Origin: Octopus vulgaris
Taxonomy: Eukaryota
Direction: 5' to 3'
DNA: 64,000 nucleotides
Assembly: GCA_951406725.2 (NCBI GenBank)
Contig: OX597816.1
Location: 105,524,001-105,588,000 of the forward strand
Position numbers and translations under genes: made by a program. Positions 1 to 60,917 of this stretch are shown here, piece after piece; within the stretch, counting starts at the first letter, position 1, and every line of letters begins with the position of its first letter. The notes under the pieces are model-generated. The model searched no databases, had not been told where the DNA came from, and saw nothing but the letters and a program-made list of their open reading frames with translations.

Positions 1-475
1 GATGCTTGAAAAGCTGTTATTGTTAAACCAACTACAGTGCTAGGTTTAATTATGAAGTTTATTTAACATTTTCCATTATACCATTTTCAATACTGCAAAC
101 ATTTGGCAGGGTACACTGCCTTGACCAAAAGTCCCAGTGACATTGGGGGAGGGGGCTATAGAATTGTGTATTTTAGAAGGGTGGACTACTCATTCAAAGC
201 TCAGACTTTTCTGAAGAAGAGAGATATTCTCTACAATGTACTAATGAAAGACTTTTCAATTTTAGACTTGTCAATTTTACAATGTTACTGCTGTTTACAG
301 TGGTAAACTGTATTTCCAAGTGGAACTTAATGAGTACTAAGTGAACTAAACCATTAAAAGTTAAGAACCTTGATCACAGACACTGCATCTTGATGATGAT
401 AAAAGACAAACAGTCAATCTTTTAGTTGGTTGTCAGTACTAGAGCTATCTCAATATTTAGAGTATATCAATATTA

Positions 476-855
476 CTAGAAATATTTTTAATTTTGAAAC
501 CCAGCGGATGTATTCCACTGAATTTAGATAAATAATCCTTCAAACAGATGGTCAGTAGCGACTCCTGCTGGGTTCGGCTACTCTGCATTGATAAAGGGCA
601 AATACCCTGAAACATGTCTGCAGATGCCTGACCAGCAAGGGGAAGCGGCTGACCTTCCCTGTTCGAAGGTTATAATGGACACAGGTTTGTGTGTCATATA
701 GCTAGCTAGAGGTGATGGCCTCTTGGAGCTAATCAACGGCAGCTTTCATCCTATATTTATGGACTGCCATATTAGCTTGGCGATAACTATTAATATCCAG
801 TATCGCTGCCGTAGTCTCCTTTAGAGAGACTTAGAAATAATAATATTTCTAATAT
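476..855 (+). mobile_element. Hammerhead-bearing structured non-coding element, copy 1 (retrozyme-like or Penelope-associated)
   Basis: GC-richer island made almost entirely of hairpins, homologous to 36502-36802(-) and 31691-31782(-), flanked by a 39-bp direct repeat (437-475/856-894). Confidence 0.7.
582..624 (+). ncRNA. Type I hammerhead ribozyme (U3-A8 core variant), predicted cleavage after GUC at 618
   Basis: TCTGCA-TTGATAA-AGGG(caaata)CCCT-GAAAC-AT-GTC-TGCAGA: 6-bp stem I, 4-bp stem II, palindromic minimal stem III ACATGT. Confidence 0.75.
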
Positions 856-1169
856 TACTAGAGCTATCTCAATATTTAGAGCATATAAATATTAGAACAT
901 TCCTTTCAGTGCCCCAATAAAAATACATTCTTAAAATAGTTGTTCTTTTTATTTTACTTTAAAACAACAGCATCAAAAATAAAATCAGTAATGATAATTC
1001 TCTTCTACATAGGAGTACAATGTTAAAGATGAAAATAGTGACAGTGGAGTTTATGCCTCTACCAAAGGTATTTGGATTGGGCACAAAGTAAAGCTTACCC
1101 CTCCATTTTGGTACAACAATAACAGTGATAATAATAAATTACAAAAACAAAAGATATCAGTTCTCTCAC

Positions 1170-1361
1170 CTGACGTCCTCTAAACTCAATTTGAAAATTT
1201 TTGGCTGATTCCTGTGTCACACGCCCTCCGAAGTCTAACTGATACACTTGACTACCTTCATTCCATAACGGTGCTTTATTGTACATAACAAACTGACGTC
1301 CTGCACAAACAGTACTGGAACCCATGCGTCGAGGTTCACCCCGACGTCGTGCTTTTCGAAT
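1170..1361 (-). CDS. TULP4: Tubby-related protein 4 (TULP4/Tusp) homolog, coding exon with the C-terminal tubby-like domain (192 nt, phase 0-0)
   Basis: Translates IRKARRRGEPRRMGSSTVCAGRQFVMYNKAPLWNEGSQVYQLDFGGRVTQESAKNFQIEFRGRQ, matching the TULP4 hallmark NKxPLWNExxQVYQLDFGGRVTQESAKNFQIE. Acceptor ttgtttcag|ATT (AG at 1363-1362) and donor CAG|gtgaga (GT at 1169-1168). The expected last exon (VMQFGRID...) is not seen in the window. Confidence 0.95.
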
Positions 1362-2947
1362 CTGAAACAAACAAAAATAAAAATTATATCCTGATTTGTA
1401 TGATACTGCCTTGAGTTCCAATGTCTGACAATCATGATTTCTTAAAGATTTTAGATTTGGGGAGGTTGTGTGTGTGTGTATGGTGGGGGTGGAGTAAGAA
1501 AATGAGAAGCTGTGATGTTAACACCTTTTTTTTCAAAAGTATTAGTACTGCAAAAAAAAAAGAGAAAAATAAATCAAATTGGAAACTCAAACTTATAGTA
1601 TTTATAGGGAACTTATAATTAAATTATGCATGGCAGCTGCTACAGAATACAAGATTGAGTGTGAAGTATAAAAATTTAGATTTTAATAGTTGCACTATGC
1701 ATTTTCACCTCCTCCCCCTCCTCATTATCAACATCAGCAACAGCATTATTAGTTTATTTTTTCCTTACTGACAATCTTACAATAATTTACTGTTGTTCAA
1801 AGTCTAATATTCATAAATCATTTTGACAACAACAAAAGTTAGTGAAGCTACCAGTTGAATTGTCAACCATATTGGAGACTAAATACAACATTTGATCAAT
1901 GTGTTTTAAATTACCCATTTTCTGAACCCTGCCTATTCAGGGTAAATTTTTCTCAATAATTCAAGATTCTTTTCTTTTAATAAACTAAATTGTAGGATCC
2001 AAAGAAAGTAGTGAGAGTGTGTTTTGGCAATTAATCAGTATAAACTCAATAGCTCCCAAATAGTGGGCTTTGAAAAACTCATGCACTGCATGGGATATCT
2101 AGGTATGTTGTGAATTTTAAAAGTATTTGAAAAATGTGACATTCATAATTTTATCAGATTTGTGTGTATTTTATATACCTGTTGGTTTTCTATATATGTT
2201 ATTTTAAAGCTGTTAACCTTAAAACCCCTAAAGCTTAAATCTTAAAAAAAAACATGCTTTTTTAAAACTTCCTACTCAAAATATGTCAGAACTGATTGTT
2301 TGATCTCCAATGCACCATAATGTCAAAAGGATTAAGAATCACTGATATAGACAGTTCAAAAGATGAACAAATTAGTTTACGGCAAGGAAGAGGAAAGGTT
2401 TAATGAAGGGTTTTGTCCAAAGCCTTTAAACTTGACTTTTTACTCAAGGAAAATGAATATGTTCTTCTTTTGTTTTATATGACCTTTAGCTCTCCTACCC
2501 ACCATTCCTTGAAATTACTGCGGTATAACTAACAGAATAGTTCTATGTATAACTATTTATTTAGTAGCAACAGCTGAGGGGTTAAGAAATTTGCACTGTA
2601 GGCAGCCGGTTGGAAATTTGATCCCACTGTATTTCCTTAACTCTTTAGCATTCAGATTATTCTGTTAAATGTAATGCTTGTTTATTCACATTGCTTTCAA
2701 TTAATCCTAAATTATCTTGTAGCTTCAAGATTCTGATGATGTGGTAGTTTATTCATAGAATGACATTGTAGGGTAGGTGTGAGGGATGAGATTTAACCAG
2801 TTTGAGGATAAAGCACTTAGAATATTTTGACCAGATATGGCTAGTTTAAATGTCTTCGACAGTACAGGCTAATCAATACTCTGAGAGAGAAATTTGATAG
2901 ATAGAAATTGTACAGAAGTCCATCATGTATGTGTGTGAGTGTGTATT

Positions 2948-22800: not shown

Positions 22801-24510
22801 CTGGATTAAATTCACTGCAGTATCAGAACTGGTATTTATTTTATCAACATCTGAAAGGTAAAAAGCAAAATGAACCTTGCTGAGATTTGAACTCAGAACA
22901 TAAAGCAATGTAACTGGGTATCACATAACATTTTCTCCAACACCTTATCAATTCTACTAACAATGATGAAAATGATTTCATTTTATTTAAATTGAAACTC
23001 AAGAGAAAACATTTTAATGTTGATATCAAGAATAATGGCAATCTGTAAAAAGAAAATTGCACTTCACAAAATGCATGTCATAAAAGGCGAAAATCAAATC
23101 ATGCATCCAAAAAAAAACAAAAATCCATAAAGCAATGGAACTTAAAAATAGAAACAAATGCATGAAACAATTAATAAATTTCTTTACAGATTAAGACATT
23201 TGTAATTATAACATAAGGGAATCATATCTTTAAGGTACATGGGATTAAAGGCTCGGTTGTAAATTTGCCAGTCTTAGAATTGAGTGGAGATATTTGTTTT
23301 TTTTTTTTTTTGTTTTCTCAGTGTCTTTAAAGATTAAGAGAAAAATTAGAAAAACTATTTTAATATTTTAGTCTTTTAACTACTAGAGGGAATAACTTAC
23401 AGGTCTGAGAATTCTGTGCTCAAAAAGAAAAATTCTTAATCTCATGAATTATGCTTTGCAATAATGTGGTTCAGAGTTTGATCTCACTGTAAGATACTTT
23501 GGACATGTGCCTTTGGCTCTAAGTTTGGTTTGAGCTAAGTCTTACAAGTTACAATAGGTAGATGGAGACTGCGATGGAAGTCATTGAATAGGCTATACCC
23601 ATTCTTGGATTGGTAGTAGTCCTTATACATCCTCCAGTTCAACACCCACATTTGTCTTTAGGCGGGGTGAGTTTTAGCAGAGTCAACTCTTGCAAATATT
23701 CTTACTAGGTCCCCCAGCCTGAATATAGTTATGCTACTTTCTATTATAGTAACCCATGAGGCATAGTTTCTTTCTCTCCTTCTCTCTTTCTTCTTACTTA
23801 TTTTGGAGGCCCTGCAAATATAATGAATGCTTGCTGCCTTTCTTTTTTTAACTAAGTCATTAAAAAATGTACTAAGCAAAATCAATTAATGCTTTCAAGG
23901 AAGAATACTGGAACAATTCTCAAAATATTGGGTAAGGAAAAAAAAAGGGGGATTGTTTAACAAAGAAACTTCAGCCTTCTTCCTGACTTCCACTATCTTC
24001 AATCAATAATTATAAATTGACTAAGGATATTTTCATTGTTTGGTGTCATTTCTACTCCTAACTGACCCTCAATTAGAAACCTGAAAATAAATAATAATTA
24101 AAAATAAAATAATCAAAACAGTAAGGAAGCAGTTTTTACATGCTGAATTTTCATTAGGATTTTTTTTCTGGGGCATTAAGTAGGCACAGAGGCAACAAAA
24201 TACAAGGCAATGAACACAAAAGATTATATACGTGTATGTGAGTATATGTGTGTGTATAACATTTATATATATATAATATATTTATACATGTTATTATAAT
24301 CTTTCTGCTGTTTTCCTTTTTTCTTTTTTTTTTTGTATTTGTCTTTTTTCTCACTTTCTCTCTACTGCCATAAAATGCAAATTTGCAACATAACAATGAA
24401 AGCTGGAGGCAAGAGAGAATAAGGCAGTGGAAGACGAGAGAGATAGATACTGCAGTATAGAGAATTTCTTAGTAGCCACAAAATGCACTGACAAAACTTT
24501 GAAGACTGAC

Positions 24511-24591
24511 CTCTTGCCAGTTATCTACCCTTGATTGCTTGCAGGGCTGCTCCATGCTTTCACTGTTTCTATTTAATTGTTCTGCAAAAGC
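24511..24591 (-). CDS. Candidate 81-nt in-frame cassette exon (AFAEQLNRNSESMEQPCKQSRVDNWQE)
   Basis: Acceptor ttatccttgttctatctag|GCT, donor GAG|gtcagt, length divisible by 3, stop-free in phase 0, in non-repetitive sequence. No homology evidence. Confidence 0.5.
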
Positions 24592-30016: not shown

Positions 30017-30213
30017 AATTTAGGACAATCAGTAAGTTGTCATTATAGCATTCAGGGTTTCAAATGTCAGAGCGAAGAGCTATGATGCATTAATTGTCAG
30101 CTATTAATTGCCATCAATAGCTGATGAGAATGCATCATAGCTCTTCGCTCCAACATTCAAAACTCCGAGCACTATAATGACAACTTACTGATTGTCCTAA
30201 ATTATACATATAT
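30008..30213. repeat. About 205-bp palindrome, Penelope-like, each arm carrying a decayed hammerhead motif
   Basis: atgtataatttaggacaatcagtaagttgtcattatag / ctataatgacaacttactgattgtcctaaattatacat; CTGATGA-GAATG...CATTC-aAAAC at 30121-30163. Confidence 0.8.
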
Positions 30214-31131: not shown

Positions 31132-31690
31132 TACATATATATATACTGAGATACACTGAAGGTTTAATATTCGTATAGTTACAAATATTTCAGGAAAGGG
31201 AAAAACAGGGATTGTGCTATGTATTTCACAGACAATAATGATGATGAAAATGCAGAAAGAGTGAAATGAGTGTTTATTAATGATTTTTATATGTAAACAG
31301 GTAAGTCAAACACTGGATAATACTACAATAGACCTATCTTTATAACACACCCACATGTGAGGAAGAGAGGGCAATATGTTAAGTGATGGAGAGTCAGTAA
31401 GGCCAAAACCTACATTCTAACATTTTCTGCCTACACCCACATGTTACACCATAAGATAGTAACTATTACATTCAAATCTAACAGTTACAACCAGTTTCAA
31501 GCTATTATATAGCTTTTAAGCAACTGATCCTGAATGAAAAGATCTGCAAACGGACCTCTAACTTGTTTTGGAGAATTTGTTGCAATTGCTTCATCCAGAG
31601 TCAAATCCCAATGATGATCATATTTGAAAATTACTATTTTTAAATCTCACAATGTGAGATATTTAGTAACAGTACTTTGTAGTAAAGATT

Positions 31691-31782
31691 GTTTGCTAAC
31701 ATAACATGGCAGTCCTGCTTTAGGATGAATGTTGCTGTAATTTAGCCCCAGGAGACATCTTCTCCTGCTGGCTATATGACAG
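31691..31782 (-). mobile_element. 5'-truncated copy 3 of the hammerhead-element family (3' hairpin domain only)
   Basis: Minus strand gtcatatagccagcaggagaagatgtctcctggggctaaattacagcaacattcatcctaaagcaggactgccat aligns with the 3' parts of copies 1 and 2. Confidence 0.7.
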
Positions 31783-31802
31783 AATCTTTACTACATGATC
31801 AT

Positions 31803-32103
31803 ATTTGTTGCTAAAAATCATGTTAAAAGATCACTGTAAACAATCGCAGTTTCATGAGAACATAGGAATCCGAAATTCCAGGATTGCAGGTTTGGATTTG
31901 GTCGAGAATGTCTTTAATTTACACACAGAGTTAGCCTTTAGATTATAAAAATTGTTATTGTACAAAAATGTTTGTTGCAAAAAGTCATGTTAAAAACATC
32001 ACCATAAACAATTACAGCAATGAAAACTTGAGAATCTAAAATTTCAGGATTGTGGGTCCAGATTCAGCCTGAACTGTTTTTACTTTACTTACAGAGTTTG
32101 CCT
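31803..32103. repeat. Diverged tandem duplication (about 135-bp units, about 165-bp period)
   Basis: tttgttgc.aaaa.tcatgttaaaa..atcac..taaacaat...caggattg...acagagtt.gcct occurs twice. Confidence 0.75.
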
Positions 32104-34559: not shown

Positions 34560-35843
34560 TCATGTCATCCCATAAGTTCTGTCCGATTTTACCTTTTTTA
34601 AAATTGAATAAAATTCAATAGTATATTAGAATGTCTAATGGAATTAAAAATTATTTTTATGCATTTGTGTATATTTAAACTAATTACAAACTATTTTACA
34701 GAATAATAGAATTAAAATTTTTTTGGTTAAAACCCTTTCTAACATGGAAGTATCCAAAGAGCATTTGAGGCACAGAATGCTTTTTGAGTACGAAAAAAGA
34801 AACTCAGCAGCGAAAGTGACTCGAAACACACTCAGTTTATGGGAAAGAATGCTTGAATGAAAGAACTTGTAGAAGATGGTTTGCAAAATCCAGAAGTGGA
34901 GATTTCAGCCTTGAAGATGAAGATCGAACAGGACGTCCAGTTGAGTTTGATGATAAGCCCCTTGAGGCATTACTTGAAGAAAATCCTGCATTATCAGTTG
35001 AAGAATTGGCAATGAAGCTTAGTTCAAACCATACAACTGTTCATCATCATCTTCAACAACTTGGAAAGGTTCCTAAAATTGGAAAATGGGTGCCTCATGA
35101 ATTGTCCAAAAGCAGCCGCAAATCTTGAGTTGACATCTGCTCTTCTCTCCATTCTTGTGAACTAATTTCACCCATTTTGGATAGACTTGTGACTGGGGAT
35201 GAAAAATGGATCTTCTATCGAAATGTTAACAATGTAAACATTGTAAACAATGGCTTGGTAAAAGGGAAAAAGTTCAACCACAACCAAGAAGGGAACTTCA
35301 TGAGAAAAAGGTTCTTCTCTCTGTCTGGTGGGATTGAAAAAGGAGTAATTCATTTTGAATTGTTACCATCTAATGCAACAATTAATGCTCAAGTCTACTG
35401 TCAGCAATTAGAGCATTTGAATCAAGCTTTGAAGAAAAAAAGACCCACTTTAGTGAATCAAATAGGAGTGATGTTTCATAAGGACAATGCACAACCCCAC
35501 ACTGCAAAGATCCCATCACAGAAGATCGAAGAGCTTGGTTGGGAAAAAATTCCTCATCCACCTTATTCTCCCAACTTTGCTCCTTCAGACTACCATTTGT
35601 TTCATAGTTTACAGAATCATTTAGGGGACATAATGTTCGCAAGCCAGGAGGAAGTCGAAACTGACATTTCAGAGTTGTTCGCTTTGAAACCAAAAGAGTT
35701 TAACATTGATGGGATTAAAAAGCTTGTAAATAGATGAAAGGAAGTCATAGATAATCAGGGAAAGTACATTGATGATTAAATATAACATTTGATCACCTGT
35801 TTTCTTTATTCAAAATTCGAACAGAACTTATGGGGTGACTTGA
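34560..35843 (+). mobile_element. Full-length mariner (DD34D) DNA transposon with pseudogenised transposase (about 34744-35779)
   Basis: About 30-bp TIRs (tcatgtcatcccataagttctgtccgatttt / aaaattcgaacagaacttatggggtgacttga), TA duplications at 34558 and 35844, 1284 bp. Motifs WVPHEL, TGDEKW, HKDNAQPH, YSPNFAPSDYHLF with 34 residues between the last two Asp. Frameshifts and stops present. Confidence 0.95.
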
Positions 35844-36167: not shown

Positions 36168-36501
36168 AGAACAGTCATCAACAAATAAAGCCTTCTGGAC
36201 AGATTTTTTTCCATTCAGCTTGGTCTTGGCACTCAGCTTGCTTGGGTTGAATAGTGACCATCCTAGTTCATATCTCAGGAATATTCTTCAGTGAAGCTAA
36301 AGCAAGGCATGGAGTAAGACACACACAAAGAACAAGATAAACAACACAATTATAAGGATATGACTTAGTTTCATAGCATTTGAAATTTGAAATGAGGCAT
36401 GGTGTATTTACTAGAAAGGACATATCTATTGCAGAAGAGAAAGACAAATAATAATAAATCTCTGAATGAGGTATAGACAGTAACTGCACAACAATGTGAA
36501 G

Positions 36502-36802
36502 TATATTTACCATTTCAATATGGCTAACCACTAAGGGTGGATGTTACTGTAGCTTGTAGCCCCAGGAGAACATCTTCTCCAGCTGGCTATTGACACACTT
36601 TCTGTGCCCTATCAGTATTTGCAAAGGGAGGTCATCCTTCCCTTGTCAACCTAAGTGATACGCATGGACTGCAGTTTCTGGGTATTGACCCGTCATCAGC
36701 GCACGACAATCACCGGTTTTCAATGGAAGGGTCCCAATGCAAATATTTATATCCTTTTTCCAGTTACTTTTCATCACTGATCTTGAAAAAGTGTATACAA
36801 GC
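36502..36802 (-). mobile_element. Hammerhead-bearing structured non-coding element, copy 2
   Basis: Same motif order as copy 1, flanked by a 52-bp direct repeat (36450-36501/36803-36854). Confidence 0.75.
36655..36713 (-). ncRNA. Type I hammerhead ribozyme (canonical core, some decay in stems), predicted cleavage after GUC at 36667
   Basis: Minus strand GTGATTGT-CGTGCG-CTGATGA-CGGGT(caat)ACCCA-GAAAC-TGCA-GTC-CATGCG-TATCAC, with palindromic stem III ACTGCAGT. Confidence 0.8.
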
Positions 36803-38701
36803 AATAATAAATCTCTGAACGAGGTATAGACAGTAACTGCATGACAATGTGAAGAAAGACAATTTTGATGAATCTCCTCACACAGCTGAACTGTGAAAGG
36901 TTGACCTGAAGTGTTCCTTCATAATTTTTCTCAAGCAGATATCATTGGGCAGATGTTGCCTGAAACATATTCATTTAACATATTTAAAAAGATAATATAT
37001 TAACAAAGGTATGATCCAATAGTTTGCTGCATTAAATCTGTAATCGTTCTGGAGTGGTCATTATTAGAAATCTTTCCTCCCACTGAAAAAGTGATATGTA
37101 TGTAATCTCTCTCTCACACACACAGAGAGCAGGAATTTTTTTTTCTTGTCACATAGAGTAGAGTTGTTATCATCATTGTTTAACATCCATTTTCCATGCT
37201 GGCATGGGTTGGATGGTTTGACTGAGGAGTGACAAGCCAGAAGGCCGCACCAGGCTCCAATATGATCTGGCAATGTTTCTACAGCTGGATGCCCTTCCTA
37301 ACACCAACTACTCCAAGAGTGTAGTAGGTGCTTTTTATGTGCCACTGGCACAGGAACTAGTCAGGCAGGCCTGGCATTGATCACATTCGGACAGTGCTTT
37401 TTACGTGCCACTAGCATAGGAGCCAGTCAGTGGGTACAGGCATCAGCTACGTTCGGATAATCAAAACTAAATGTTGGGTCTGCTGATATGGTGGACTGAG
37501 CTAAGCCTGATAAAACCCTGACTATATGATACCTCATGCAGCTATGAGATGTGAAGCAGTATAGAATGTAATGTCCAACTGAACAAATTAAAATGGTAGC
37601 AGCAAATTTCAACTGAAAACCCATGAGAAGTCCAAAATGTTATCTATTCGACCAAGTTATTTGTAACACACACACACACACACACACACATTAAATTAAT
37701 ATTAACACTATACTGTTGTTGTTGGTGATGATGATGATGACAATGATGATGAATAGCATTGTTGATGATATCAATAATTTGCACTGAAATTTAAGAGGAA
37801 TGAGAAAAATTAATAAATTGTTATTTATAGATAATATCAAGTTAGTTCTCTTCTCACACTTTGTTATGTTTGAGAAAGAAACAGAAGTTGAAGTTTTAAG
37901 AAGAATCAGCAAAATTAAATCATAGAATCTGATGTGGTTTAAAATAAAATTAAATTGATAAAAGTAGAGATAATAGCTCCTATTAAAAGCTGCATCGAAT
38001 TTTGATAAAGTTTGTTAATCACTATTAAGTAGTGTATGTATATTTCTTACTGTTAAGTCCCTTCTTTTAAATTCTATTTTAATTTTTGTCACATAATAGC
38101 ATTTTGATTTCATTCTAACATTCTTCCCCAGAACAAATTGGATTAATTCAATAAAGCACTTATTGGAAAGTAGAACCTGAATTGAAGCTTAGAGAGTGGA
38201 AGAGTGTGTGTATGTGTGTGTGTGTGTGTGTGCGTGTGTGCATGTGTGTGTGTGTGTGTGTGTGTGTGAGAATGAGTGGGGCTGAAAAATTTGAAACTCT
38301 TTAAGAAAAACAATTATTTAATTAGCTGAATGTTTGATCTGAGTAGAGGTAACTGCTTTGTAGATTAAAATAAAGTCAGATTTAGAAAGATATTGTAAAG
38401 TGAAGTAAGTTCCAATTAAAGAAACATCAAGAGGAATGCTGTCAGGTTATATTTTGTACTGAATGCCAGAAAAGTATAACTACCCCCAAGTTAAGAATAC
38501 GACCATACACTGATCAAGACATACCAAGATGATGGCTGTAGCAAGATGAAAAACATTAGAAACATAAGAATTATAAGAATATTCTTTCTTAATATAAATA
38601 TTCTGAATGTCTAATGGATTCTTCACTGTGTTAATATTTTCTTCTGGAAATAAAACATGTAGTCGTTGATGTTTAGACCCAGGTCAACTAGCTGTCCCCA
38701 T

Positions 38702-39900
38702 CCTGGTAAAACAATGTAGGGGATGCGCTATGGCAGCAAAGGCACCCTCAGTGCAGATACAGCCATGACCAAAAATGGATTCAGCATGGTCTAGACTGCA
38801 TGTGGATTTCACAGGACCAATAACTGGATCTTATTATATCATTGTGGTGGATAGAAATTCCAAATGGCCTGAAGTATGTAAATATTCAAGGCCAACCACA
38901 ACTGTAACTATTGACTTCTTGGAAGAATTGTTCACTCATTATAGAGTGTCTGATATGATTGTGTCGGATAATGGCACACAATTCATGGTGAAGGAGTTTG
39001 AAAGATTCTGTAAGTTGGTCCAGATGAAGAATGTGTTAACTCCACCATACAATCCAAGGTTAAATGGGTTAGGGGAAAGATTCGTCAACACATTCAAGAG
39101 AGTTTTAAGAAAGACTAGATGGGAAGTCCTTGAAGATAGAAATATGACAAAGTTCTTACAGGTGCACAGAATAACACCAAATCCAAATGCAAAGTTGAGT
39201 AGGTCACCCACAGATTTGATGTTCTCCAGAAAAGATTTGTTGTGTTTGACAAATTGTTGCTGAGTAGGAAATGGAAAATACAAAATTCGGGAAGTAGAAT
39301 GAAATTTTTAAACACAGGTGATGAAGTGTATTTTAAAATATATAAAAATGGAAAACAGGACTGGGAACTGGATGTCTGGGCAATGTGATGTACATGGTAA
39401 AAGGACCAAAATATGAACATAAAAGGCATTCTAACCAATTAAAGAAAAGATATACCAAAAATCAAGAAAGGTGAGAGGAGCCAATGGATATATGGTATGA
39501 CATGTTTGAGGTCTCAGAACCACAAGTGATAGCAGAACTGACACATAGGTCAAACAGGAAAAGAAAAGCTACAGAAATGATGGAAATTAATGCCAAGAGA
39601 AAGAAATATGCCAGTTTCTCAACAAGGAAATAAAATTAATAAAAATAAGGAATAAATAAATAAAAAAAGACAAAGCCAATCTCAAAAGGGGAAGTGTTGT
39701 GTGGAAGTAGAACACCCCTATTGGTTGGCTCCTAACGGACTGTGCCACAATATAAATAGATATATGCAGAGAGCCTTCATCACAGAGTAAAGCCGGGAGT
39801 TATATACTGTCAAGGGTTATTACCAGTATCATAAGTAGAATGATTTGCGAGGACACTATTATTATCCCATTATATCATACGTCAAACATGCGATACAACA
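38702..39900 (+). mobile_element. Ty3/gypsy LTR retrotransposon 3' remnant: integrase, PPT and 3' LTR (39695-39900)
   Basis: CxxC, RLHVDFTGP, IVVDRNSKWPEV, IVSDNGTQF and PPYNPRLNGLGERF motifs. Polypurine tract aaaaggggaag directly before TGTTGT...ACAACA (206 bp). Confidence 0.9.
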
Positions 39901-59745: not shown

Positions 59746-60917
59746 CTTTTGCCGAAGTTGTGCTTTTTGGAATGATTCTAGATCTTTGAAACTGTGAATG
59801 ACTTTTGCATTTTCATCAGCACTGCAGGACAGATCTTCTTCAGAGCTGTCTAATAGCCTCAAGTAACGATGCTGTTTTTTGCCTAAAACTGGGCTATAAT
59901 GTTTGCTTTTACCACGTAACACTTCCTCTCTTAGTCTTCGTGTAGGTGTGTCCATCTTTGGACTTCGACGAACAGGTGATGAAGGCAGAGAAGCGCTCTG
60001 TTTGATTTCTTGGCTTGATAGTCCTCGATTTAGAGTTGATTCTTTTACTGAATCTGATAAAATATTGATTCCTGTATCAACTGAACCATGCTTTTTAAGA
60101 GTTCTTTTGATTGGGGAATGATGGGGGCTGCATGTACTTTCTGATGCACTATCATCTTCAGTAGTAGTTGAGTCTATGCTTGTTCGGTAATAATGAGCAA
60201 ACGGGGATGGTTTTTCTAAAGTGTCACTGTCTGGGAGGGAGTCCTGATGAGCAAAATACAAACGAGGTTGGTTTTCTCTGGCAGTAACAGGGACTAATTG
60301 GCTACAGTCCTGAATAGTGTTTGCTTCTAATGGCAGCTCAGAGTTATCACCACCCTCATCATCAATGTACCTAAGACTCTGACGTGCTGGATCAGCCCAG
60401 CGTGGCATATCATCAGACATGTCAGTTCGTAAAATTTCTTCTAATTCAGTTTTTGGTTGTTTAGAACCTTCACTGAGTACAAGGCTCTGTTGCCCTGTAT
60501 CCAGTGTAATTTTAGGTGGGTTTGCATTAGTAGGAACTTTTGGTCTTGCTCCTAAACATTGATAACCATCTTTTGATATTACTCCATCACTGCTGTTAGA
60601 GTTCACTATACAGTTATTTGCTGTCTCAAAGTGTATATCACGTGGATTCATGCTCACCTGAGAGATTTTAGCAGGTTGGAGTTGGTTGGTTTTATTGGCA
60701 GGAAAACCTGTGAAATTTGGTCCTTCAGAAGATTTTGCTGCTAAGCTTTCCCGGTCAATAATAATTGGAGATTCAATATGATTACCTATAGAATTTGTTC
60801 CAAATGGTTCCATTGGATAGTGTGCAGCTATCCTTGAGTTAGGATCAATAGAAGATTCTGGAATGATGCTAACATCTGGTACTGTGGCTCCACCAACAAC
60901 ACTGACAATTTCAAGCC
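59746..60917 (-). CDS. TULP4: TULP4 homolog, large internal exon (1172 nt, phase 1 to phase 0) encoding the Ser/Pro/acidic linker
   Basis: Only long non-TE ORF. It stays open upstream of the ORF-track Met to acceptor tttttattgttttag|GG (AG 60919-60918) and ends ...FKDLESFQKAQLRQK at AAG|gtaaac (GT 59745-59744). Phase 0 matches the 1361 acceptor and the strand is the same. Confidence 0.85.

Follow-up and report, generated by a model that had tools for sequence, protein, structure and literature searches.

Three short stretches of a 64,000-nucleotide window of Octopus vulgaris DNA (contig OX597816.1, positions 105,524,001 to 105,588,000) are best explained as insertions of three subfamilies of a non-LTR retrozyme superfamily. 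The superfamily carries a predicted type I hammerhead ribozyme and was likely copied by the reverse transcriptase (RT)-endonuclease that Penelope-like elements (PLEs) encode; to this reading we assign a probability of roughly 0.85. The element belongs to the non-LTR retrozymes, a kind already described (PMC7229834; 10.64898/2026.07.22.740005).

The three stretches and their ordered motifs, listed in a first-pass annotation of this DNA, were verified as the sole matches in the 64-kb window by blastn, nhmmer and a five-subfamily profile, the last of which recovered only the three known copies. The copies match one another at 65–67% identity (blastn E 5e-9 to 1e-14) and are found by nhmmer at E 1e-9 to 1e-11. 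They are related repeats, as had been proposed, but not three copies of one family: each is a single copy of a separate subfamily (A, B or C), 94–97% alike to its own majority sequence, and the three subfamilies are 54–63% identical to one another. The features below use two internal 3' end positions, start sites 1 and 2, that recur across the genome.

481..850, + strand: copy 1, subfamily A; slightly more than one unit of 361 nt, circularly permuted, 96.5% to majority sequence
469..480 (left) and 851-862 (right), + strand: copy 1 target duplication, 12 bp; alternative, 39 bp, 437-475 / 856-894
502..520, + strand: copy 1 predicted conserved hairpin upstream of the rod (folds, covariation)
532..673, + strand: copy 1 predicted long rod; ~60 nt either side of the hammerhead pair together, extending stem I
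582..624, + strand: copy 1 predicted hammerhead, type I; predicted cut after 618
677..831, + strand: copy 1 predicted conserved structural module (covariation)
677-695, 699-731 and 813-831, + strand: predicted hairpins of the copy 1 module (covariation)
736-743 / 805-812, + strand: predicted closing stem of the copy 1 multi-way junction, with inner hairpin 765-781 (covariation)
36448..36852, - strand: copy 2, subfamily B; 1.15 times the 353-nt unit, 97.3% to majority sequence
36661..36705, - strand: copy 2 predicted hammerhead, type I; CUGAUGA core, predicted cut after 36667
31627..31787, - strand: copy 3, subfamily C; 5'-truncated 161-nt arm (unit 64-224), 93.8% to majority sequence
31783..31794, + strand: copy 3 inverted arm, 12 nt; matches unit 161-172, so ends at site 1
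1167..1364, - strand: TULP4-like exon (Tub domain); other exons at 24508-24591 and 59746-60915

Copy 1 has its 3' end at start site 2, and its unit junction (851 to 481) recurs in many loci. Start site 1, near 796, lies inside the predicted module, and start site 2, near 851, follows it. The 39-bp repeat around this copy is more simply, if tentatively, read as the 12-bp duplication within an older 37-bp tandem. Copy 2 also ends at site 2 and is flanked by a 10-bp target duplication (36853-36862 / 36438-36447); its 53-bp side repeat was rejected as a flank or target duplication, being the redundancy of a copy of 1.15 units. The first pass had placed it at 36502-36802(-), where a copy does lie, although its full extent is 36448-36852. 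Copy 3, annotated as partial at 31691-31782(-), is a complete two-armed insertion that spans 31627-31794 and lacks a hammerhead of its own; its main arm ends at site 2, and its target duplication is 13 bp (31795-31807 / 31614-31626). The ~135 nt upstream of the cleavage site once taken as a family feature is the truncation point of copy 1, copy 2 having 185 nt. Being 3–6% diverged and carrying one hammerhead or none, the window copies are probably inert. A ~98-bp direct repeat, 75% alike, adjoins copy 3 (31968-32064 and 31801-31898).

The host gene in the window is TULP4-like, its exon at 59746-60915 being 100% identical to a protein of that name in Octopus sinensis. Copies 2 and 3 share one intron of this gene in sense orientation, and copy 1 is antisense, downstream of the Tub-domain exon; the last coding exon was not found within the window. 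Other features of the window are a Mariner-type transposase fragment (35129-35734, +, PF01359), an LTR-retrotransposon integrase fragment (38769-39260, +, PF00665) and, at 30058-30162, a near-perfect inverted repeat of ~30 bp with a 40-nt spacer and a weak miRNA-model match on both strands.

The window's own assembly (2.8 Gb, 227 contigs) was searched for further copies. A first look returned 2,983 candidates for A, 4,225 for B and 2,347 for C, with 40 scored for each. The assembly was also sampled in sixty 10-kb pieces, placed at round-number positions along contigs C1-C30 and totalling 599,900 bases; 14 of the pieces contain 15 insertion loci between them, and none turned up in the reversed sequence. 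The genome total is estimated from this 600-kb sample at ~70,000 loci (Poisson 39,000–115,000), which bears out the earlier description of the element as abundant. Retrozyme sequence accounts for 6,084 of the 599,900 sampled bases, 44% of these from one array. The sample also revealed further subfamilies, of which D and G were followed; the best matches of D are 97–100% alike and form arrays of up to 5.6 units. At least four further, more diverged retrozyme subfamilies occur in the sample (L120, L123, L129:5048-5375, L132, L154, L167 and L170).

Subfamilies A, B, C, D and G share 49–64% pairwise identity, with unit periodicities of 361, 353, 353, 359 and 355 nt, respectively, and a GC content of 40–45% in A–C. 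Where a copy exceeds one unit, what follows is the unit again, and the element is therefore a monomer in circular permutation. No other shared sequence was found 5' of the unit in the loci compared, nor any LTR-type organisation, the periodicity being of the unit only and the 5' ends variable. The longest ATG-initiated ORF across the units is only 30–63 aa, none encodes an RT or GIY-YIG endonuclease, and ARAGORN found no tRNA part in them. The view of the element as non-coding thus stands, as does its description as probably non-autonomous and retrozyme-like, given units of 353–361 nt, inside the ~170–400 nt range of non-LTR retrozymes, without an ORF and with a predicted type I hammerhead.

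Insertion structure was analysed at 105 best-scoring loci (A 29, B 30, C 19, D 12, G 15) comprising 153 arms, after L022 and L066 were dropped as duplicates and 25 D loci were merged into 12. Two or more head-to-tail hammerheads are present in 15 of these loci (A 2/29, B 0/30, C 2/19, D 11/12, G 0/15) and in none of the window copies. The proposal of dispersed monomers rather than tandem arrays fits the window; elsewhere in the genome tandem arrays do occur and reach 5.6 units.

In all five subfamilies the predicted ribozyme is a type I hammerhead with a 6-bp stem I, a 4-bp stem II and a palindromic stem III of 2–3 bp. It had been called a minimal hammerhead; it is in fact the canonical metazoan type I form, described in PMC4209133 as working in dimers, rather than the minimal form of PLEs. 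A motif scan of the window gave seven candidates with a core and stem II; on inspection, two of these, at 588 (+) and 36699 (-), show a stem I and a cleavage triplet as well. The copy 1 hammerhead has the U3-A8 core UUGAUAA, the stem II loop CAAAUA and a palindromic stem III; in copy 2 one core-adjacent stem I pair is broken. The prevalent core is UUGAUAA in A (23/32), CUGAUGA in B (29/31) and C (8/10), CCGAUGA in G (11/12) and CUGACGA in D (7/7 within one array). The U3-A8 change spans the whole of subfamily A and is therefore not decay; covariation of this pair is reported for PLE hammerheads in PMC4209133. Stems I and II also covary between subfamilies. Rfam made no hammerhead call in the window, nor on the two window hammerheads alone. 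A subfamily D copy aligns to the consensus of RF00163 (Hammerhead_1) through its core, 4-bp stem II and CAAUA/CAAAUA loop, but at 12.3 bits (E 4.4) it lies far below the gathering score of 34 bits. With this weak score and no call, the hammerhead assignment rests on pattern, folding and covariation.

The predicted circular folds of A, B and C lie 8.1, 4.5 and 8.1 standard deviations, respectively, below 40 dinucleotide shuffles each. Folded separately, the five units give a similar plan: first a hairpin, then a rod of ~60 bp that ends in the hammerhead, followed by two more hairpins, a multi-way junction and, at the tail, a last hairpin; the minimum-energy fold of D is without two small hairpins. 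RNAalifold, run on the MAFFT alignment, did not return the rod, so it rests on the per-subfamily folds and on duplex energies, which are -45 to -63 kcal/mol for rod arms within a subfamily against -17 to -43 kcal/mol across subfamilies. The motif aagg(g)gaag..tgacct(t)ccct noted in the first pass is present, but the hairpin drawn from it is an alternative fold; its predicted partner in the folded unit is a segment upstream of the hammerhead.

Covariation was assessed on 13 genomic copies from five lineages, in an alignment unfitted to structure. RNAalifold returned 40 pairs, 24 of them with two-sided changes. Across 45 named pairs, 91% of cells are paired, compared with 32–44% when the pairs are slid, and 23 of the 45 changed on both sides, including 5 of 7 in the junction closing stem. 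On five measures of covariation, four exceed all 500 shuffles, and the fifth, further pair types, lends no support (496/500 shuffles as high). As the lineages number only five and the helices were picked from the same alignment, these figures count as support rather than as a probability. They support a predicted fold, covarying from one subfamily to another, that brackets the two start sites.

Several features of the insertions suggest copying by a PLE protein. Firstly, 134 of the 153 arms end within 8 nt of one of two fixed internal sites (67 at each; 19 elsewhere), the sites being defined from the same best-scoring loci as were counted. Site 1 lies 169–181 nt and site 2 220–234 nt past the cleavage site, a spacing of 47–56 nt. 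The 5' ends are scattered, with one of 153 within 5 nt of the cleavage site and 4.7 expected; an end of the insertion at the ribozyme cut was rejected on this count. Secondly, 43 of the 105 loci carry an inverted arm. Both outer ends are on-site in 32 of them, 30 with one end at each site and two with site 1 twice (p 1.2e-7); the remaining 11 have one end off-site. Copy 3 of the window is a small example of this one-site-per-arm arrangement. Finally, the insertion flanks are 84% AT, TA runs occur at 54 of 134 ends, and target duplications of 7–16 bp are found at 26 of the 105 loci. The 600-kb sample agrees: each of its 15 loci ends at these two profile positions, 7 of the 15 cross the cleavage site, and four of the five two-armed loci mix the two sites.

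Short target duplications and 5' truncation are also compatible with LINEs, and LINE fragments are plentiful in the flanks. A SINE-like element moved by an ordinary LINE (RTE, CR1), with priming at the RNA 3' end, is nevertheless very improbable, since the units have no tRNA head and no fixed 5' end; the two alternative internal 3' ends, the circular permutation and the one-site-per-arm pairing already largely refute it.

PLE-mediated copying, in turn, accounts for two internal 3' ends, AT-rich targets, 5' truncation, partial tandems and inverted arms, all of which the retrozyme loci display. In vitro, the Anolis PLE Poseidon uses two internal start sites that yield an optional tail, selects AT-rich targets and extends both strands (PMC11167929), and PLEs are described as having inverted truncated arms, with the tail often at one end only (PMC8557442). 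The likeness to the endonuclease-bearing PLEs Poseidon, Neptune, Nematis, Naiad and Hydra, as these are portrayed in PMC11167929, PMC8557442 and PMC4209133, covers the two start sites, the optional tail, AT- or TA-repeat targets, partial tandems, inverted 5'-truncated arms and a type I hammerhead that includes the U3-A8 variant. The octopus unit differs from them in its length (0.36 kb rather than several kb), in having no RT or endonuclease, in its tail of 47–56 rather than 30–40 nt, and in its canonical hammerhead with a long stem I extension in place of a minimal one. At one locus (L003:1446-2103), a subfamily A arm with its end at site 2 and a B-like arm with its end at site 1 stand head to head, separated by a short TA run, which is either a mixed-subfamily insertion or two events; no further clear mixed insertions were found among the retrozyme and sampled loci.

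Two PLE lineages of the same genome are candidate partners. In a GIY-YIG search, 16 of the 150 matches listed lie in a 781-aa open RT-endonuclease frame. This first family has two ORFs, with an RT, a CX4CX2C linker and an endonuclease, and a period of 4.8 kb, and is Neptune- or Nematis-like by the criteria given in PMC8557442. It has two 3' ends ~35 nt apart and a hammerhead with the UUGAUAA core and a CAUG stem III, as in subfamily A; this shared core variant is the only link observed between subfamily A and a particular PLE. Likeness between the tails of this family and of the retrozymes did not rise above shuffles (p 0.28–0.88). Young members of the family (L101:1-5190, L104 and L113) carry ATTGG and TGACGTC motifs within tandem repeats of the 3' UTR, and L113 has one 3'-end type on each arm. 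Another PLE subfamily (L106:4300-4350 and L107) has a hammerhead-like core, CCGAAGA, with the C4 change seen in subfamily G.

The end anatomy of the retrozymes is the same as that of PLEs, most PLE insertions are described as 5'-truncated to the terminal repeat, and our comparison covered two PLE lineages only. The copies might on these grounds be solo or truncated pseudo-LTRs of a yet unseen autonomous PLE family, copied in cis. We regard this as quite unlikely, because every copy beyond one unit runs into the same unit and never into an ORF. The retrozyme profile also had no match to the terminal repeats of the first family at 35 loci (33 distinct), where the two matches obtained are separate insertions, and none in the second family's 30 plus 15 loci other than the chimera described below. 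PLE protein matches adjoin one of the 120 retrozyme loci searched, and do so head to head. The check proposed in the first pass, whether the copies are simply terminal repeats of a PLE family, thus gave no such match in the PLE loci examined.

A mixed insertion ties a retrozyme to one particular PLE more directly than anything else observed; it is a single case, concerns subfamily D and lies outside the window. At L216:728-3642 (G000:C28:8357227-8360141), a D arm ending at site 1 stands head to head with a 5'-truncated autonomous PLE that retains an open frame. The joint has 4 nt of microhomology and no TA run, and the whole lies within a TA repeat. The PLE belongs to a second family, 27% like the first, of which the joined part is the open 3' half; this family is very young, its best 40 matches being 99–100% identical. 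The D arm is carried by 4 of the 30 second-family loci fetched (L216, L262, L263 and L264), all with common LINE-like flanks. As the four share junction and flanks, they represent one event copied within a larger duplicated stretch, and several independent events are ruled out. The number of units varies among the duplicated copies. A deletion between two separate insertions could mimic such a chimera. The second family has the CX4CX2C linker and a CCHH-like set, which does not fit the description of Hydra, and its 37 database relatives are unnamed or misnamed. As seen at L266 (G000:C8:118731000-118740500) and L216:3429-3470, it has a frame of at least 909 aa with a low-complexity N-terminus, a microsatellite within the 3' UTR and a hammerhead-like motif with C replacing A9.

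We propose that multi-unit loci are transcribed and that paired hammerheads would release unit-length RNA, the long rod keeping its ends together for ligation into a circle. A PLE protein may then recognise the conserved hairpin-and-junction module. Both strands of an AT-rich target would be cut 7–16 bp apart, a footprint visible in the loci, with the chemistry modelled on that reported in PMC11167929, and reverse transcription would start at two positions, ~175 and ~228 nt beyond the cleavage site, each strand using one of them. The structure of the copies indicates that copying crosses the hammerhead junction and stops variably, giving fragments, 1.x-unit copies and multi-unit arrays, and that two cDNAs are joined head to head or one arm is kept. 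As copying passes the cleavage junction, the template is either circular or uncleaved. In sequencing runs of four studies, which we guess to be RNA, the elements are covered but the flanks are not, which suggests transcription; one of them (X5) includes the host exon without the intron. Joints that go back 361 nt also occur in a DNA-like run (X15), and contigs read the same for circles as for tandem DNA. A-to-I editing was rejected among variants present in at most two loci, A>G changes at 89/9,202 and T>C at 101/9,112 (p 0.38) showing no strand bias.

Some D arrays carry private variants common to all units and both arms, and others consist of unlike units. One D array (G000:C3:51539979-51542162, L180-L185) has period-three unit variants, as a trimeric template or a duplication of three units would produce. 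The differences between units within arrays and the period-three pattern are unexplained by a single monomer circle; the variant patterns in D arrays fit circles of several sizes, multimers or template switching. It is accordingly possible, if on balance doubtful, that PLEs mobilised the element from an uncleaved multi-unit linear transcript, or from several RNAs with template switching, the hammerhead being minor in copying. Units do differ inside young arrays, 5' ends avoid the cleavage site (1/153) and stem III has just 2–3 bp. In the in vitro system of PMC11167929, moreover, hammerhead mutants had no effect on PLE insertion and uncleaved RNA was the main template. Of the Xenopus retrozyme dimers, 8 of 9 are described as without cleavage. 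Against such a template, only 4 of the 93 A, B, C and G loci have double head-to-tail hammerheads, yet copies longer than one unit are common. Locus-specific variants are carried by both arms and all units in some arrays, the core, rod and module are kept across 49–64% identity, and mussel retrozymes of similar size are reported as mostly circular (PMC7229834).

Arrays could instead have grown in place from PLE-derived monomers by unequal crossing-over, in a satellite-like manner (model in 10.64898/2026.07.22.740005). The period-three variants of one array, the non-uniform units of others and the differing unit number between duplicated chimera copies are what this would produce. We hold it to be distinctly improbable, because arrays 97–100% alike are spread over many contigs at sites unrelated to one another, both inverted arms may comprise several units while their outer ends lie at the start sites, and the dispersed insertions with their target duplications, which number tens of thousands, would be left unaccounted for.

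Like the metazoan non-LTR retrozymes presented in PMC7229834 (Cervera and de la Pena 2020), the octopus superfamily is non-coding, falls in the mussel size class of 350–390 bp with a GC content of 40–45% in A–C, has a canonical type I hammerhead with a weak palindromic stem III and a highly self-paired predicted circle, occurs as dimers to multimers and shares its genome with PLEs. It differs in that most octopus copies are dispersed, truncated or two-armed and have 3' ends at fixed internal positions. The discussion in PMC7761336 reports no conserved motif in non-LTR retrozymes that would indicate a mobiliser, whereas the five octopus subfamilies share a predicted covarying module around the start sites. 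PLE mobilisation was proposed in PMC7229834 and has phylogenetic support in 10.64898/2026.07.22.740005 (Li, Clavereau, Pollet 2026), and the route by which animal retrozymes return to the genome is stated as open in PMC7761336 and in the latter work. The elements of Li, Clavereau and Pollet resemble ours in PLE dependence, in forming monomers, dimers and multimers, and in occupying intronic and intergenic sites. Their case, as set out for vertebrates and with no mollusc class, is built on co-occurrence and pseudo-LTR homology; the octopus case is built on insertion anatomy and one mixed insertion, and shows no pseudo-LTR homology beyond the hammerhead core. No paper on octopus or cephalopod retrozymes was found in the literature, although a deposited Dfam or Repbase consensus may exist. 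Neither "octopus" nor "cephalopod" occurs in the main text of PMC7229834, and Penelope expansions in octopus are reported, in an account of them that carries no mention of a ribozyme, in PMC8967140. New here are the superfamily census, the predicted covarying module around the start sites and the mixed retrozyme-PLE insertion.

A more tentative suggestion, to which we give well under even odds, is that the module is a landing platform read by PLE proteins through its shape and not its sequence. A dimeric enzyme would use site 1 for one strand and site 2 for the other, might co-load a retrozyme circle and its own PLE RNA in a single reaction, and would roll round the circle as it copies. If so, the module would be a portable signal by which any small circular RNA could be inserted into a genome, and subfamily D would have its partner enzyme named by the mixed insertion. 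With fixed start sites, a mutable and putatively covarying module, copies of very young age, a genome that also has two intact PLE lineages, and a single insertion tying retrozyme to PLE, the superfamily is a ready test system for how animal retrozymes return to the genome. It may form ~1% of the octopus genome, with hammerheads inside introns.
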